Below are positions 1-48,901 of a stretch of DNA of 64,000 bases, in pieces. Source of the DNA: Candidatus Omnitrophota bacterium (lineage in GTDB: Bacteria > Omnitrophota > Gorgyraeia > Zapsychrales > Fredricksoniimonadaceae); contig CAIOPG010000017.1 of assembly GCA_903860135.1 (NCBI GenBank), forward strand, positions 75,364-139,363, in the 5' to 3' direction. Each line of letters opens with the position of its first letter. Position 1 is the stretch's first letter. The notes below the pieces were generated by a model, which ran no database searches, was not told the DNA's origin, and saw nothing but the letters and a program-made list of their open reading frames with translations. A program made the position numbers and the translations under genes.

Positions 1-1476
1 TTTTCTGCAGGTCATTCAGAAAGACGGCGGTATCAAAAAAAACCTTGCGGTCAATGAAAGCCCCGCGGTAACCCAGCTCATAATTCATGACCGTTGTTGT
101 CTCCAGGTCAGGATTACCTGTCACCGCAAAAGGGATATTGACATGATATTCAAAAAAACCATGCGCGTGCGTGGCACGTGCGACGGTTGCCCGGATAAAA
201 TGCTCCTGGCCAAGATCATACATGGCGGTCTCGCGGAAAGAGTAGTCGGCACCGGTATAATTATTCTTTGCCCATTCGACACCGCTGTGCAGGGACAACA
301 GATCCGTTACATCCATGCTGTCCTGTAAAAACCCGCGCAAGATCACATCGCGATAGTCCCGGCTGGGATCAACAAAATAATTATCACGCCCTTCATTCCA
401 GCGATACCCCCCTCCCCAGACAATTTTATGATTGTAAAGAGGCTTGAAGTCATGCTGAAACTCCAGGTCATACTGCCGGTAGGCTACATCATGAACGGAA
501 GGCTTGACCTTGAACAGATCAATATTCCAGAATGTCCGGGACATCTGCACATTAAAACCCGCATCAGGATCAGGCCGGTGATTATACTTGAACATCTGAT
601 AGTCCATGTCCGTTGCCCCGGCGGTATTTGCCACATCCGGCTCTAGGCCGCGCGTCCCTGTCTTGGATCCCGCCAGCCATTCAATATCCCGACCTTCCGC
701 CAGATGATACGTCGTCCTGATATTGCAGGCATTCAGGCGGCTCCCGTCAATGTATTGCTTCCCGTCATCCCCCCCGAACCCCTGACTTCGGTCCGCCTGC
801 ACGCTGAGCCGGTAGTCAAGCTTTCCGACAGAATCGCCCACACGGGAATAATACTGCTGATCTTTACCCAAGCCGACCGTCGTGACCGCCTTGAACCCTT
901 TGGTCATCGACGGTGGTTTAGTCTTGATATTGATGACACCATTGAACGAATTATACCCGTACATCACGGCATTCGGGCCGCGCATCACCTCGATCCGCTC
1001 GATGTCCTCCAAAAAGATCGGCTGGTCAATCCACCAGACCCCCTGGGTGATAGGATTAAAAATAGAGCGGCCGTCCTGAAGGACCTGGACCATATTGGAA
1101 TATTTATCATTGAAGCCACGGATGGAAACACCGACCGTATTGGCGCTCAGCTGGGCCACATTCACACCAGGGACCTTGCGCAGGAGGTCCCAAACTTGCG
1201 TGTAGCCGCTGCGTTCAATGTCCTCGGCTGAAATGACCGTAACAGCCGCCGGCACGGATTCTAATTTCTCGGGTATACGTGAACTGATGGTGACCGGGGT
1301 GTCCAGAAGGCGCGTGATGTCCTCTTGCATGAGAGCCTCAATGCCCGACGGCGCGGCATGGAGATATCCCGCTGAAGAAAATACCCCCAGAGCGCAGAAA
1401 AGAATGCCCGAACCAAACTTCCGCCAGGTTAAGCTGTTTCTAAAGAAGCGCCCGATGAGCTTTCCAAAACCACCCA
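1..1476 (-). CDS. TonB-dependent outer-membrane receptor (partial; continues past window start)
   Basis: Minus-strand frame open from the window edge; plug-domain motif ...ESVPAAVTVISAEDIERSGY; candidate GTG start (~1476) followed by a typical signal peptide GGFGKLIGRFFRNSLTWRKFGSGILFCALGVFSSAGYLHA|AP; downstream beta-barrel-like Y/G-rich sequence. Not in the ORF track because no stop lies inside the window. Confidence 0.75.
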
Positions 1477-2187
1477 CCGTATTTTTCTCAAGGCACGCGG
1501 CTTTGGGCAACGGCACCGCCGCATGACCCTGAAAATTCTTCCAGACCGATATATGCGCCACGACCTCCCGGTCAAGGGCAATGCTGGCTCCTTCGCATTC
1601 AATGACATGGGCCGGATAATTCTGATGAAGTTTAACCACGATCCCCGGACGGATGCAAAGGCCCTCGAGTTTATGAACCTGCTGGTCATTCTTACAGTGA
1701 ATGTAGGCGATCCTGGCGCTTTCACCGAGCTTGAGATCCGCCAAAGGGATGATAAAGCTGAATTCGGCTTTCTTCGCCAATTTACAACAATCACCCTCGG
1801 GAATGGGCATCCCGTGAGGACACTCTTTAGGATGGCCCAGCAAGGTGCATATGCCGTTAACAAGTTCCAGCGACACCGTGTGCTCGAACTCGCACGCCAC
1901 CTGCTCGAGGTCGCCGCCGCCAAGAACATCCGCGATAAGGCGCTCGGCCAGGCGATGCGCCCGGATCAACTGACAAGCCCGGGCTTCTCCGTCAGCGGTC
2001 AACTTGATGACGGCAGGATCCACACTTTGCTCGATCAATCCGCGGCGGGCGAGCTCCTCGACAACCAGCGGATCAAAGTCATGCTTCATCGACTTCCTGA
2101 AGAAATCCAGGGATGTTTTCCCTTGCTCTTTCATGTACCATAACTGCTCGATATGTTCATCCTGCTGGACATTCTTTTCTATAGCCA
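1477..2187 (-). CDS. DtxR/IdeR-family metal-dependent transcriptional regulator (HTH + metal-binding + C-terminal SH3/FeoA-like domain); ORF lacks an in-frame stop and runs into the TonB receptor frame
   Basis: ATG at ~2185-2187 preceded by GGAG; translation MAIEKNVQQDEHIEQLWYMKEQGKTSLDFF...ACQLIRAHRLAERLIADVLGGGDLEQVACEFEHTVSLELVNGICTLLGHPKECPHGMPIPEGDCC...LADLKLGESARIAYIHCKN...VIECEGASIALDREVVAHISVWKN (DtxR signature RLAERL, HP..CPHG metal site, FeoA/SH3-like tail). No tta/cta/tca triplet in phase between 2187 and 1; upstream stop is the feoB stop. Confidence 0.7.
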
Positions 2188-2254
2188 TATAGGCTCCACG
2201 ATTTTTCGGGTTCCAAGGGCACTGGACGGCAACCAAAGTCATCTTAGTTATACG

Positions 2255-4186
2255 TCATCGCGCGCCAAGAATCAAAAACAAAATTCCATGTAGCGCGCCA
2301 GCCAGGGCAAAGGAAATGATAAAGATCAACGCTGTCATCGTACAGGCAACCTTCACCCCCATCTCCCTGCCGATAGCAATGACATTGGCCGCACACGGAA
2401 AAGAGATCGTTGTCACAACAACCGCCATGATGGACTGAACATAACCCAGCGTTCCGGTTTCAACCATTTTCAATATGAGCCCGGCGGCCGCTTCACGCCG
2501 CGCCAGGGCCAGCAGGAAAACATCCACGATGTCCCGGGGCAAGCCCATCCAGCCAACGACCACAGGGCTCAGCACCTGTTTGGTCAGCCCCAGAAGCCCC
2601 GTTTTTTCAAAAAAGAAAAGGCCGACAGCCGACAAGAGGAAGATCGGCACGGCTTCCTTGAGAAAATCCATGACCCGGTGCCAGGTCTTGCGGGCAACAG
2701 CCCCTAGGCCCGGAAGGCGCATGGCGGGGATCACCTGGATAAAAGAACTGGATGCCTTGCTTTTGATGATCCTGTTAAGGATAAGCCCGGCGCCCATCTC
2801 GCAAACAAGGAGCGTCCCCAGAACGATCAAGAAAGCCCCAAAGCCGACACGCGCCAGGATGGACATGGATATGCCCATCTGCGCGGAACACGGAATGGCA
2901 AAAGCGATCAGGAACACCGCGATGAATTTCTCTTTGGGCACCGTCAACCCGCGGGTGCTGAGCGTCGCCATGGTCTTGCAGCCAAAGCCCAGCACCAGCG
3001 CCGTGATGGCATTGCCCGGGATCCCGATCTTTTGAAAGATCCGGGTCGACATCACCGTAAAGTTCGTGATATACCCGCTGTCTTCAAAACAGCCAAAAAT
3101 AAAAAAGAACACCGTCAAGATCGGCAGAACGGTGCAGAGCGCATTGAAAAGCCCCAGCGTCAACAAGCCGTGATTGCCGATCAAAAAATCATGCCAGAAA
3201 AGCGGCAGGGATAATGCCGTGATCAAGCCTGTGACAGGCTGAACAACAATAAAATTAATGCTCTTGTCGATTGCGCCGGAAACAGTGACGAGGCTTAAAT
3301 AAACAATGGCCATAAGGACCAGGAAGATTGGTATGCCGGTGACGGGATGCCGGGTGGCCTGTGTCACCTGGTGTGCCAAGTCCGAATATGGTTCCTTTTG
3401 CTTATGGACAACCTGTGCCAGCTTGTCCACCCAGCGGTTACGCCTGTCATGGATCACCTGGCGAACACTCCCGATGATCTGCACCCGGCGCCGTCCGGCT
3501 TCTTCGCACACACGGACGGTCCGCTCCCTGCCCAGGCGCGTCTCGATCAACTTTTCAATAAAAGGATCCTTCATCAACAGCAGGGTCGCGATCTTGTACC
3601 TGCAGTCCAGTTCTACTGGCAAGGCTGCCGCCAGATCCGTGATCGCCGTTTCAAGGCGCATGCCATATTTAACACCCGGCGTGCCGCGGCGCGCCCTCAG
3701 GATCGCCTCCTCGAGCTCTTTCTTGCCCAGCCCGTGCAGACCTGTCGAGGCCACGACGGGCACACCAAGGCTCCGTTCAAGTTCCGTGGCATCGATCGCT
3801 GTCCCCGGGCGCGCAGTCCCGTCGATGGTGTTTAACACAACAACCATCGGTATATCCAGTTCCAGCAGTTCAGCCAGGAGCAGGAAGGATTGTTTATATT
3901 GCCCGGCATCAAGGCAATGCACAAGGATATCCGGCTTCTCGGCCAGGATCATATCGCGGACCGCAAGTTCTTCTTCGGAATGAATGAAAAGGCAATGCAG
4001 TCCGGGGGTATCGATGATCTCGTAAAATGTGTCCTTGATCCGCGTGACCGACCGCTTCATCTCGATGGTCGTTCCGGGATAATTGGCAACGATCGTGTAT
4101 TCGCCGGTGAGATTATTGAATATCTGGGACTTGCCGGTATTGGGAAGACCGACGAGCACTACTTTTTTGAAAGGACTGCTGGCCAT
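2255..4186 (-). CDS. feoB: ferrous iron transporter FeoB
   Basis: 643 aa; N-terminal G-domain GLPNTGKS...DTPG followed by polytopic membrane domain; RBS GGGAGAA before ATG. Confidence 0.9.
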   Translation of the reverse strand: MASSPFKKVVLVGLPNTGKSQIFNNLTGEYTIVANYPGTTIEMKRSVTRIKDTFYEIIDTPGLHCLFIHSEEELAVRDMILAEKPDILVHCLDAGQYKQSFLLLAELLELDIPMVVVLNTIDGTARPGTAIDATELERSLGVPVVASTGLHGLGKKELEEAILRARRGTPGVKYGMRLETAITDLAAALPVELDCRYKIATLLLMKDPFIEKLIETRLGRERTVRVCEEAGRRRVQIIGSVRQVIHDRRNRWVDKLAQVVHKQKEPYSDLAHQVTQATRHPVTGIPIFLVLMAIVYLSLVTVSGAIDKSINFIVVQPVTGLITALSLPLFWHDFLIGNHGLLTLGLFNALCTVLPILTVFFFIFGCFEDSGYITNFTVMSTRIFQKIGIPGNAITALVLGFGCKTMATLSTRGLTVPKEKFIAVFLIAFAIPCSAQMGISMSILARVGFGAFLIVLGTLLVCEMGAGLILNRIIKSKASSSFIQVIPAMRLPGLGAVARKTWHRVMDFLKEAVPIFLLSAVGLFFFEKTGLLGLTKQVLSPVVVGWMGLPRDIVDVFLLALARREAAAGLILKMVETGTLGYVQSIMAVVVTTISFPCAANVIAIGREMGVKVACTMTALIFIISFALAGALHGILFLILGAR

Positions 4187-4256
4187 TATTCTCCCAATAA
4201 GATTTTCGAAATTGAAAAACTGTTGGGCTCATGCTTGGTCATTATACCAGAACTTT

Positions 4257-5207
4257 TTAAGAACGCATCTTGCGCGCGACAACCTTCCTGACAGCAGCGG
4301 CAATATCCGCCGCTTTCAGATTGTAATGCTGCAGCAACTGTTCGGGCGTTCCCGTCTGGCCGAAGGCATCCTTGACGCCAACGATCTCGAGCGGCACAGG
4401 GTTCGTCTGCCCGAGAACCTCGGCGACAGCACCGCCCAAGCCGCCCACAGCCTGATGTTCTTCAGCCGTTACGATCGCCCCCGTCTCTTTGGCGCATGCC
4501 ACGATCACATCAACATCGAGCGGCTTGATCGTGTGCATATTGACAACGCGCACATTCAATCCTTCGTGCGCCAACATATCTGCCGCCACAACGGCCTCGG
4601 ACACCATGGCCCCGCAGGCAATGACCGCCGCATCCGTCCCCTGCCGGATCACATTGGCCTGCCCGACCACAAACGGCGTTGCTTCATCGGTCAAGACCGG
4701 CAACGGCGCACGTGAAAAGCGGACATAAAAAGCACCCTCTTCGGCCAGCATCGCGGCCGTGGCTTTCTTCGCCTCGATATAGTCCACCGGGCAAAGGACC
4801 TTGATGTTCGGAAGAACACGCATGATGGCAAAATCTTCCAGGCACTGGGCGCTGGCGCCATCTTCACCGACGGTAACACCGGCATGGGTCGCGGCCAGCT
4901 TGACGTTCAGATTATTGTAACAAATATCCATGCGGATCTGGTCATACGCGCGATTGGTCAAAAAGACCGCAAAAGAATTGGTCACCACCGTAAAGCCTTC
5001 GCTCGCCAGCCCGGCCGCCATCCCGATCATATCCTGTTCGGCGATACCGACCGAAAAGAAACGCTCCGGGCATACCTTCTTGAAATAGTCTGCGCGCGTG
5101 GCATCCTCGAGGTCCGCCGAAACAACCACGACTTTAGGATCCACCTTGCCGATCGCCGCCAATGCCTCGCCAAATCCGTCGCGTGTGGGGGTAGGTTTCA
5201 TAGCCAT
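4257..5207 (-). CDS. transketolase, C-terminal (pyrimidine-binding/C-terminal domain) subunit
   Basis: 316 aa, typical split-transketolase TktB-like sequence (…FSVGIAEQDMIGMAAGLA…). Confidence 0.85.
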   Translation of the reverse strand: MAMKPTPTRDGFGEALAAIGKVDPKVVVVSADLEDATRADYFKKVCPERFFSVGIAEQDMIGMAAGLASEGFTVVTNSFAVFLTNRAYDQIRMDICYNNLNVKLAATHAGVTVGEDGASAQCLEDFAIMRVLPNIKVLCPVDYIEAKKATAAMLAEEGAFYVRFSRAPLPVLTDEATPFVVGQANVIRQGTDAAVIACGAMVSEAVVAADMLAHEGLNVRVVNMHTIKPLDVDVIVACAKETGAIVTAEEHQAVGGLGGAVAEVLGQTNPVPLEIVGVKDAFGQTGTPEQLLQHYNLKAADIAAAVRKVVARKMRS

Positions 5208-5208
5208 A

Positions 5209-6030
5209 TCAATAGAGCACCTTTAGCGCATCCGCCAATTGTTCCTTGTTGGGCGCCTTCCCGTGCCAAGCGCTTTTAAGCTCCATGAACGGGACTCCCT
5301 TGCCCTTTAACGTCTGCGCAATGACGACCGTAGGCTTCCCCTTCATCCCCTTGAAATCATTGAAAGCCTTGATCAACAGATCAAGGTCATTGCCGTCAAT
5401 ATCGATGACATTCCAGCCAAAGCTCTTCCATTTATCCGCCAGCGGCTCAAGCCCCTTGATCTCGCTGACAAGGCCGTTCTCCTGCACCTTGTTATAGTCA
5501 ACAATGGCGCAAACATTATCCAGCTTGAAATGCGCCGCGGCCATGGCCGCTTCCCAGACCGACCCTTCCTGGATCTCGCCGTCACCCATCAGGCAATACG
5601 TCTTGAAATCCTTGTTCTTCAATTTCGCCGCCATGGCCACCCCGTTGGCATACGAAAGCCCGTGGCCGAGCGACCCGGTATTGAATTCAACCCCCGGCGT
5701 CTTTTTGGTCACATGCCCCTGCAGGCGACTGCCAAATTTGCGAAATGTCTTCAATTCTTCTTTGGGGAAATAACCAAAATTGGCCAGCGTCACATAGGTG
5801 ACCGGGGAAATATGCCCTTTGGAAATCACCAAACGGTCGCGCCCGTCCCACGCCGGATCAGCCGAACGGTGATTCATCACCACCGCGTAAAGGGCCACGA
5901 ATATCTCCACGGCGGACAATGACCCGCCAGGATGCCCCGAGCCTGCGGTCTCGAGGGTTTCAAGGATCTCACGACGCATCAACAAGGCCTGTGCTTTAAG
6001 GGCACTCAGATCGTATTTCTTGTCGGACAC
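5209..6030 (-). CDS. transketolase, N-terminal (TPP-binding) subunit; start refined to GTG at 6030
   Basis: GSGHPGGSLS…GDGE motifs; GAGGAG RBS 6 nt upstream of GTG (SDKKYDLS…); the longer track ORF (to 6096) would include the predicted promoter. Confidence 0.8.
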   Translation of the reverse strand: MSDKKYDLSALKAQALLMRREILETLETAGSGHPGGSLSAVEIFVALYAVVMNHRSADPAWDGRDRLVISKGHISPVTYVTLANFGYFPKEELKTFRKFGSRLQGHVTKKTPGVEFNTGSLGHGLSYANGVAMAAKLKNKDFKTYCLMGDGEIQEGSVWEAAMAAAHFKLDNVCAIVDYNKVQENGLVSEIKGLEPLADKWKSFGWNVIDIDGNDLDLLIKAFNDFKGMKGKPTVVIAQTLKGKGVPFMELKSAWHGKAPNKEQLADALKVLY

Positions 6031-6084
6031 AAATAACTCCTCGCGCAAAATCATTCCAGAGATTGACGGATAAAAAACGGGTTG

Positions 6085-6113
6085 AGTATAGGTCAATACC
6101 CGAAGCTAGTCAA
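6085..6113 (-). promoter_or_regulatory. sigma70-like promoter TTGACT-N17-TATACT upstream of the transketolase operon
   Basis: Read on minus strand: cTTGACTagcttcgggtattgaccTATACTcaacc. Confidence 0.45.
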
Positions 6114-43558: not shown

Positions 43559-43573
43559 TCAGTTGAAATAAAA

Positions 43574-43688
43574 CCGGTAACTATCTACTCTCCCACACCC
43601 AAAGGGTGAAGTACCATTGACCTTGAAGGGCTTAACTTCCGTATTCGGAATGGGAACGGGTGTTGCCCCTTCAGCAAAGCTACCGGAA
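43574..43688 (-). rRNA. rrf: 5S ribosomal RNA
   Basis: uuccgguagcuuugcugaagggg…cccguucccauuccgaauacggaaguuaagccc…gggagaguagauaguuaccgg. Confidence 0.8.
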
Positions 43689-43750
43689 AATATTTAACAA
43701 TTATGTAATGTAGGATAGAAATACAACGTCATCTGTAGATGAAAAATAAA

Positions 43751-46685
<2,935 letters not shown>

Positions 46686-46821
46686 CTTTATAACTTGATC
46701 AAATATTGCGCAAACTACAGATTAAATTGTAGTTTTATCCTACATTACATAATTGTCAAAGAACAAGCCCCAATAAAAAATTGGGGCAAAATATCTTGCA
46801 ATCTTATTGCCATTCATGCTC

Positions 46822-46898
46822 TGGTGGAGCTGAGGAGGATTGAACTCCTGACCCCCTGCTTGCAAAGCAGGTGCTCTCCCAAACTGAGCTACAGCCCC
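46822..46898 (-). tRNA. tRNA-Ala (TGC), CCA encoded
   Basis: ggggctgtagctcagtttgggagagcacctgctTTGCAagcaggg…ctccacca in the 16S-23S spacer. Confidence 0.85.
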
Positions 46899-46938
46899 AA
46901 AAAGAAAAGAAAGAATAATGCTATTCTAAGTTTCTAAA

Positions 46939-47012
46939 TGGGCCCGAGTGGGATCGAACCACTGACCCTCGCCTTATCAAGACGATGCTCTAACCAGCTG
47001 AGCTACGGGCCC
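46939..47012 (-). tRNA. tRNA-Ile (GAT)
   Basis: gggcccgtagctcagctggttagagcatcgtcttGATaaggcgagg…. Confidence 0.85.
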
Positions 47013-47263
47013 GAAATGTGCTCGAGGTCAATGATTTAATCTCCGATCAGTCTTTACACCATGCACTGACCATTAATCAAAATATATGCTGTCCATCCCA
47101 TCATCACGATGGGATGGACAGACTGAAATATTTTAGCCAAGTCATTCCGGGAGAATTATCCCCTGAATGACACATGTTTTCTTTGGAAAAAACATGCTTG
47201 AATATTCTGCTTGTCTTTCGACAAACAATGTTTTTCCTACCGACATTCCTTCGAATGAAGAAT

Positions 47264-48806
<1,543 letters not shown>

Positions 48807-48901
48807 AAAAATGAACTTGGCTAAATAAAAAAAATACTAATGGGCAATAAGATTGTCAAAGAACGATTGCTGCTCGAAAATCTCTTCTTCTGAGGTTTTC
48901 A

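Follow-up and report, generated by a model that had tools for sequence, protein, structure and literature searches.

An in-frame fusion of a DtxR/IdeR-type regulator gene with a TonB-dependent receptor gene in an Omnitrophota population

Why should a gene for a metal-dependent repressor of the DtxR/IdeR type run without a stop codon into the gene for a TonB-dependent outer-membrane receptor? This question is raised by one end of a 64,000-nucleotide stretch of DNA from an uncultured lake bacterium assigned to Candidatus Omnitrophota (referred to here as the window; contig CAIOPG010000017.1 of assembly GCA_903860135.1, positions 75,364 to 139,363 of the forward strand). A first-pass annotation had observed that a minus-strand regulator frame lacks a stop codon and continues in phase into a TonB-dependent receptor, and this was borne out by the 729 open codons and by the order of the Pfam domains. 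A genuine stop-loss or translational fusion, an internal restart of the receptor and an assembly error had been offered as explanations, and the first of these is the one favoured by the evidence. Both parts of the fusion are ordinary members of well-known families; the fusion itself appears to be undescribed and its function is unproven.

The frame is open from the ATG at 2188-2186 to window base 1. This is the same ATG that had been placed at about 2187, with its position made exact. At the base composition of the window an open run of 729 codons is expected by chance with a probability of about 1e-14. Read from 2260, the minus strand gives R, a stop, RITKMTLVAVQCPWNPKNRGAY and MAIEKN..., and it is then free of stops to base 1. 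The fused open reading frame (ORF) is absent from the supplied ORF list because it runs off the window edge. On a longer scaffold from the European Nucleotide Archive (ENA), L001, it ends 468 nt past window base 1, and the full product (P0001) has 885 amino acids (aa). The translation contains the motifs AHRLAERL, GHPKECPHG, ...VVAHISVWKN, RFFRNSLTWRKFGSGILFCALGVFSSAGYLHA followed directly by AP, and VTVISAEDIERSGY. Pfam places along it, in this order, Fe_dep_repr_C (aa 64-131), FeoA (aa 147-215), Plug (aa 309-418) and the TonB barrel (aa 461-727). Of the profile matches that had been predicted, PF02742, PF04023, PF07715 and PF00593 were obtained, but PF01325, the helix-turn-helix model, was undetected in the regulator even at E<=1 and the winged helix appears only in the structure model. 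The 3' end of the 16S rRNA encoded in the window (...GATCACCTCCTTTCT) carries the canonical anti-Shine-Dalgarno (anti-SD) sequence CACCTCCTT. ATG 2188 forms an anti-SD duplex of -5.6 kcal/mol and agrees with the homologue N-termini MAIE(K/R)N, whereas an in-frame ATG upstream at 2242 is without a Shine-Dalgarno sequence and pairs at only -1.6 kcal/mol. As there is no stop codon in the frame, a ribosome that starts at ATG 2188 must reach the receptor end. The primary product from this start is therefore an 885-aa precursor made up of the regulator (residues 1-251), a four-residue junction, the former signal peptide (255-278) and the receptor (279-885).

The junction is short. Regulator homology ends at base 1436 (N251; tblastn against the L010 regulator) and receptor homology begins at base 1423, which corresponds to residue 2 of the closest receptor, P0002, and only four codons separate the two blocks. 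Met1 of the stand-alone receptor P0002 aligns with W255, where TGG is found here and ATG there. In the assembled sequence the regulator stop and the receptor start are both missing at the junction, and with both of them gone one has to assume a single deletion or rearrangement, or else two or more substitutions. The codon table and the three-frame translation have no in-frame ATG, GTG or TTG from GTG 1477 to the hydrophobic core. Both alternative frames stop at the join, one at a TAG just 5' of the junction (1442-1440) and the other at a TAA inside it (1431-1429). A 166-aa ORF at 1429-1929 (-), which is the +1 frame of the regulator and ends at this TAA, and a 206-aa ORF at 1523-2143 (+) are shadow frames over the regulator gene. 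A scan for promoters and terminators gave no promoter-like or terminator-like site at the junction, and the RNA structure there, taken as a candidate frameshift stimulator, is nothing unusual (z -0.23). The sequence AAACAG occurs both at the junction and 5' of the L002 receptor, a match that was judged to be a chance 6-mer. The first-pass annotation had named 1480-1560 as the place where a stop should be sought and had described a 22-aa linker. The stops of relatives fall at about 1440-1420 instead, and there is no linker; the stretch is a conserved tail of the regulator, whose end abuts the signal peptide.

The claim of a complete DtxR/IdeR-like regulator with the motifs quoted above stands: a winged helix is modelled, and a metal-binding domain and a FeoA/SH3-like domain are found. 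The AlphaFold model of the regulator (mean pLDDT 79.7 with 81 sequences) comprises a winged helix, a helical dimerisation domain and an SH3-like domain. The winged helix is modelled with pLDDT >90 as a three-helix bundle (residues 2-21, 27-37 and 40-48) with a beta wing (strands 52-55 and 60-63). With Foldseek, the best matches of the model in the PDB are IdeR and DtxR (E = 1e-12). Residues 1-130 match two-domain IdeR/DtxR chains with an rmsd of 2.3-2.6 A and a TM-score of 0.75-0.78, and full-length IdeR/DtxR chains align over 220-230 columns. H78, E82, C99, E102 and H103 are invariant among 81 regulator-family sequences, and we take them to correspond to the DtxR ligands H79, E83, C102, E105 and H106. 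The regulator misses the NCBIfam equivalog cut-offs of NF053665 (60.9 bits against 290) and NF047407 (62.1 bits against 350). Judged by these comparisons, it is a divergent member of the DtxR/IdeR family and not an ortholog of DtxR or MntR. Its closest stand-alone homologues come from Omnitrophota metagenome-assembled genomes (MAGs). They are 67-78% identical, 248-255 aa long and cover 97-100% of a 255-aa query ending ...RNSLTW, and the 120 best database homologues are 168-297 aa long, mostly 216-261.

The closest relative of the regulator, P0147 in the locus L016 (85% identical; ENA BUCK21 SAMEA6873001 scaffold_149345), has an in-frame TGA at L016:763-765. This codon sits exactly at the family-invariant Cys165, which is TGT in the window, and the frame stays open and conserved beyond it. 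The TGA would be either a selenocysteine codon or a nonsense mutation. Downstream of it, the fold examined as a SECIS-like structure was not significant (z -1.47). P0147 was considered as a guide to the ancestral C-terminus and proved unusable, as its contig ends inside the tail and the gene is broken by the TGA.

The receptor half starts with a segment like a signal peptide that lies at ORF residues 255-278 and not at an initiator codon of its own. This segment, WRKFGSGILFCALGVFSSAGYLHA followed by A, pairs position by position with the signal peptide of P0002 (24 aa), MRTFCAGIFLFFMGLAVLSRPAHA followed by E. Its Kyte-Doolittle means over 15 residues are 1.6-1.9, typical of signal peptides, and an LHA-A site is present, after which (A278) signal peptidase would be expected to cleave. 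The full barrel of P0001 ends ...LTLKVEF, so that the C-terminal Phe is kept. The NCBIfam model NF053590 aligns to P0001 end to end (profile positions 6-603 of 604) with a score of 266.3 bits, compared with 281.3 bits for P0002, and both scores are below the cut-off of 645. P0002 is encoded by a stand-alone 631-aa gene and is 81% identical. The pairwise dN/dS of the receptor against L002 is 0.09 and the regulator has a pN of 0.12-0.18 against a saturated pS of about 0.8, comparisons that span long divergences and cannot date the fusion. Neither half of the fusion shows decay. The coordinates of the features discussed are collected in Table 1.

Table 1. Features of the fused gene and of the adjoining feoB, in window coordinates
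Feature	Position	Strand	Remarks
Fused ORF	1..2188	-	729 codons inside window; 885 aa in full
Receptor beta-barrel (aa 461 on, cut by window edge)	1..808	-	PF00593, 42.0 bits (cut-off 27) for the part in the window
Receptor plug domain (aa 309-418)	935..1264	-	PF07715, 90.6 bits (cut-off 23.9)
Former signal peptide, now internal (W255-A278: WRKFGSGILFCALGVFSSAGYLHA)	1355..1426	-	predicted cleavage after A278 (between LHA and AP)
Fusion junction	1424..1435	-	AGC TTA ACC TGG (S252 L253 T254 W255); no stop, no start codon
Regulator C-terminal tail (aa 218-251)	1436..1537	-	spacer, then basic/aromatic motif GGFGKLIGRFFRN
Regulator FeoA/SH3-like domain (aa 147-215)	1544..1750	-	PF04023, 31.1 bits (cut-off 23); strands in model
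Regulator dimerisation and metal-binding domain (aa 64-131)	1796..1999	-	PF02742, 70.8 bits (cut-off 27)
Regulator predicted winged-helix DNA-binding domain (aa 1-63)	2000..2188	-	AlphaFold, Foldseek
feoB-regulator spacer	2189..2254	-	GGAG Shine-Dalgarno 5 nt before ATG 2188
feoB (643 aa)	2255..4186	-	66 nt before fused ORF, same orientation; FeoB_N/Gate/FeoB_C (Pfam, identical L001 gene)

Another question is whether the two genes have been neighbours for long. The regulator stop codon is present in 84 of the 86 surveyed loci, and the remaining two are cut by the locus end. After residue 217 the tails in these loci are mainly 0-14 aa or 20-39 aa long, with four longer outliers. No receptor homologue occurs within 4 kb of the regulator in any of the 86 loci. 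The feoB-dtxR block was compared between L010, L011, L014, L015, L017-L020 and window bases 2189-4256; the window feoB is 68-69% identical to the feoB genes that adjoin regulator homologues, and there is no separate feoA gene beside feoB in the window. Five close regulator loci share the order feoB, FecR-domain gene, dtxR, followed by HEAT-repeat and other genes. From this neighbourhood the window keeps only feoB and dtxR, without the FecR-like and HEAT genes. A conserved DtxR-receptor neighbourhood was rejected, as the regulators of relatives adjoin feoB, FecR-like and HEAT genes and no receptor. To judge from these loci, the adjacency of regulator and receptor is not ancestral.

A word-index search of 5.8 billion proteins found no other protein covering both halves, and an exhaustive HMMER search of 1.84 billion representatives found none that spans both. 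In the latter, the receptor-type matches were 441-752 aa long (one 243-aa fragment apart) and covered query residues 248-885 only, and the regulator-type matches were 215-322 aa long and covered residues 5-229 only. A fused relative would have ranked near the top of this list, although clustering at 50% identity could hide fused members under representatives that are not fused. A genome scan with P0001 as the single query found no relatives among the GTDB representatives searched, and no description of a DtxR-receptor fusion was found in the literature. As far as the searches go, the fusion of a DtxR-type repressor with an outer-membrane receptor appears to be undescribed and unique to this population.

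How could such a protein have arisen and how might it work? It is proposed that a feoB-adjacent DtxR/IdeR-type gene became linked at its 3' end to codon 2 of a gene for a TonB-dependent receptor, an event that would have removed the regulator stop, any intergenic spacer and the receptor start. A single deletion or rearrangement could account for this, as could a pair of point changes such as TAA to TTA (1432-1430) together with TTG or ATG to TGG (1426-1424). The precursor would be bitopic with a topology like that of ToxR and CadC, and its DNA-binding part would lie in the cytoplasm. N-in/C-out insertion through Sec is predicted for the former signal peptide, which has R250, R256 and K257 before it. 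Translocation of the receptor part would follow, with probable cleavage by signal peptidase I after LHA278. The outcome would be a normal mature receptor, available for insertion into the outer membrane, and a regulator that stays tethered to the inner membrane. A recent in-frame fusion that is confined to the lineage, with a ToxR-like topology and an internal export signal, is the account we prefer, and taken as a whole we consider it an even bet. That both halves still work through this route seems possible, at slightly less than even confidence. It may also be that the fusion is a functional polyprotein, from which Sec and signal peptidase yield an inner-membrane-tethered repressor, with the retained signal peptide as anchor, and a mature receptor in 1:1 synthesis. 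A corollary would be that the whole DtxR-FeoA subfamily works at the membrane beside FeoB by means of its tail. This larger proposal is rather doubtful.

P0001 is 100% identical to the window translation and has been called on 6 contigs (NCBI and ENA). The ENA scaffold L001 (scaffold_1, 399.5 kb, BUCK21, SAMEA6872998) agrees with the window at every one of 8188 nt, a 7.7-kb contig of a different ENA analysis (ERZ1426828) bears the same 885-aa gene, and a Logan contig, assembled separately from one run (ERR4195066), matches the window without a difference over 5944 nt, junction included. On the view that the join is an assembly or consensus error (a chimera or an indel), the real genome would have two separate genes. 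It can be said for this that all of the data are short-read metagenomes from one project and one clonal population, and that, with both other frames stopping at the junction, an indel of one base would give a regulator of normal length. The junction is nevertheless identical in all four assemblies (the window contig, scaffold_1, the ERZ1426828 contig and the Logan assembly), with 0 SNPs between them, and the base composition is alike on its two sides (regulator and receptor GC 0.54 and 0.53, GC3 0.64 and 0.62; neighbouring genes are similar). After any single-base correction, moreover, the receptor would still have no ATG, GTG or TTG before the hydrophobic core. An assembly error, one of the explanations in the first-pass annotation, is therefore very unlikely, since no single-base change yields two genes. 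The four identical assemblies argue against an assembler artefact and do not show the allele to be old. That the fusion is real in the DNA is held with high confidence. A programmed +1 frameshift at UUU-AGA (1444-1439) would end the regulator of shifted ribosomes as ...GRFF-ETA at the TAA at 1431-1429 while unshifted ribosomes make the fusion. AGA is the lowest of the six Arg codons (3.5 per 1000 codons), and the +1 frame is open and stops where homologues end. Against this, re-pairing from UUU to UUA is poor for tRNA-Phe, the RNA structure given above would not be stimulatory, no SD-like stimulator lies at the right distance, and the uniqueness of the arrangement leaves no conservation to test, so that this mechanism is extremely improbable. 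The receptor could also be made separately by internal initiation in the regulator tail, at GTG 1477, GTG 1516, TTG 1510 or a rare ATC 1456, with the fusion as a minor by-product. The codons are in frame, a GGGTGG stretch lies 12 nt before ATC 1456, the anti-SD pairing is -8.7 kcal/mol upstream of TTG 1510 and -9.4 kcal/mol for ATC 1456, and the signal peptide made from GTG 1477 would be 41 aa long and positively charged. Every one of these candidates, however, lies inside sequence conserved as regulator tail, homologous receptors have signal peptides of 20-30 aa that start at the W255 position, the junction is without a promoter-like or terminator-like site, and ribosomes from ATG 2188 would read through regardless. 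GTG 1477, which had been put forward as a restart at about 1476, pairs at only -2.7 kcal/mol, and the closest receptor starts 22 codons downstream of it; this pairing argues only weakly against it, as anti-SD scoring discriminates poorly (median -5.7 kcal/mol at gene starts, mean -5.1 in the coding background). Internal initiation is judged to be quite unlikely.

A more serious competitor is that the join is a lesion. A recent deletion or mutation would have joined the genes, the receptor would be misexported or misassembled, the regulator may be impaired, and the gene would be an early-stage pseudogene without further damage yet. Only one clonal population has the architecture, which neither the 86 related loci nor the results of two very large protein searches contain, the receptor lacks its own start codon, the gene order around both halves is unlike that of all relatives, which shows recent rearrangement, and the nearest regulator relative bears an in-frame TGA. 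On the other side, neither half is frameshifted or prematurely stopped, the conserved motifs, the signal-peptide features and the C-terminal Phe are all kept, the join preserves the frame and coincides precisely with the boundaries of both proteins, and the fused allele is the only one in every assembly. A lesion is possible, although on the unlikely side. The preferred account of a recent lineage-confined fusion is supported by the intactness of the product, in which conserved motifs and metal ligands, an IdeR/DtxR-like model and an end-to-end receptor alignment are all found. Several points weigh against it. The fusion is carried by one clonal population only and there is no sign that it has survived under selection over time, and the lack of a relative with the same architecture is what a recent accident would be expected to look like. 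Export and cleavage from an internal signal peptide would have to follow a folded 250-aa domain, and its hydrophobic core has only moderate hydrophobicity. Regulator and receptor would have to be made at a fixed 1:1 ratio, an unusual arrangement. The in-frame TGA of L016 could mean that selection on the regulator is relaxed in the clade. The model of the tail adds to these points: AlphaFold gives residues 220-255 low confidence (pLDDT <50) with no helix predicted, and the hydrophobic moment is the one property behind the idea of an amphipathic tail.

The tail of the regulator deserves attention in its own right. The tails of the 250-254-aa homologues align with residues 218-251 and stop a few residues from W255 (...FFRNSLTW), and their pattern, KAxxKKxxGGLxKFxxxFFKxxx followed by a stop, matches KAACLEKNTVGGFGKLIGRFFRNSLTW in the window. 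In the subfamily (the L010-L057 regulators) this C-terminal extension of about 20-39 aa is conserved and has a basic/aromatic end. Examples of the end motif are GGLKRFFKAFFKS, with KRWRFRKGKG and ...LWRWRFGPRDRG in more distant homologues. If helical, the tail is strongly amphipathic. Its hydrophobic moment is 0.5-0.9 across the subfamily and 0.91 in the window, at or above the values computed for the membrane-targeting sequences of MinD and FtsA. It may be a membrane or FeoB docking element. Because the tail is basic/aromatic and amphipathic and the gene adjoins feoB without a separate feoA, the regulator may work at the membrane already. It is a speculative suggestion that the subfamily normally does so and that a fusion to a membrane-bound partner may for this reason be tolerable.

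The predicted topology of the uncleaved fusion can be compared with that of known membrane-bound regulators. Regulators of the ToxR/CadC type are bitopic, with a cytoplasmic winged helix, one membrane span and a periplasmic domain. By analogy, the DNA-binding domain of the uncleaved fusion would be cytoplasmic and a single hydrophobic segment would lead to a C-terminal part beyond the cytoplasm. The two are unrelated in sequence, and here the outside part would be a whole barrel precursor behind a cleavable signal peptide, in an arrangement that is not conserved. In the FecA-FecR-FecI system a TonB-dependent transducer is coupled to transcription through a periplasmic signalling domain, an anti-sigma factor and an extracytoplasmic function (ECF) sigma factor. 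The likeness lies in the physical and genetic coupling of a TonB-dependent receptor to a regulator of metal-uptake transcription. The Fec components are separate proteins, whereas here the receptor is without an N-terminal signalling domain and is covalently fused to a DtxR-type repressor. A FecR-domain gene lies between feoB and dtxR in the relatives of the regulator but not in the window.

Each half also has well-characterised counterparts. The regulator resembles the repressors with a C-terminal SH3-like (FeoA) domain, namely DtxR, IdeR, SloR/ScaR/MtsR and the P. gingivalis MntR with FeoA domains (PMC4805248), in its modelled winged helix, its dimerisation and metal site and its FeoA/SH3 domain. 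It differs from the DtxR/IdeR repressors in that its Omnitrophota-centred subfamily has several extra invariant cysteines and a basic/aromatic tail of about 35 aa, and in that it has no stop and runs into a receptor. NF053590 (the TOL_0244 family) is the nearest curated model for the receptor, and the two share the plug, a 22-strand-type barrel and the C-terminal Phe. The window receptor is not an equivalog of this family; it lacks a start codon, and its signal peptide is embedded 254 residues into a longer protein. A natural FeoA-FeoB fusion is found in Bacteroides fragilis (PMC8980893) and is a precedent for a Feo-associated SH3-like domain fused to a membrane partner. Unlike the window fusion, it is conserved, joins cytoplasm-facing partners and has no signal peptide (PMC8980893).

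The genes around the fusion provide some further observations. In L001, just past window base 1, the receptor is followed by genes for a 196-aa protein and a HAMP histidine kinase (L001:8660-10770), with a 1-nt gap and then a 4-nt overlap. The 196-aa protein is weakly like YfiR/HmsC (DUF4154, E 0.009). The gene for P0002 sits behind a DUF2062/DUF748 gene with a 14-nt spacer, and its locus shares with the window locus only the downstream 196-aa protein and the HAMP histidine kinase. Because the same three-gene module is found at P0002 and at the window receptor, the gene content speaks for a sensing module and not for a simple receptor for siderophore uptake. Directly upstream of feoB, a transketolase is split into two adjacent genes at window 4257-6096 (-), which encode its N-terminal (295 aa) and C-terminal (316 aa) halves. 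A complete rRNA operon lies at window 43572-48811 (-) and comprises 16S (47266-48811), tRNA-Ile, tRNA-Ala, 23S (43749-46700) and 5S (43572-43687). In a study of magnetotactic bacteria, feoB is reported to be usually found within magnetosome gene clusters (PMC7602337), and several of the related loci have isolate labels (nDJH..., MBPbin, MYbin) styled like those of the magnetotactic MAGs in that work. An NCBIfam scan of the neighbours of the L010 regulator returned no names of magnetosome proteins.

What the fusion means depends on which account is correct. If it is a recent accident, it is a well-documented double stop-loss and start-loss fusion, and gene callers would give one 885-aa protein with an impossible-looking mix of domains that is worth recognition by annotators. 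The tail of the feoB-adjacent DtxR-FeoA subfamily, which resembles a membrane-targeting sequence, may be of wider interest than the fusion. If the fusion works, a cytoplasmic metalloregulator would tolerate tethering to the membrane, and an outer-membrane barrel could be exported by means of an internal signal peptide with 254 residues in front of it. Such a bacterial "polyprotein" would link a cytoplasmic transcription factor with an outer-membrane protein, and it would be relevant to how new ToxR-like membrane-bound regulators originate and to the limits of targeting by Sec.

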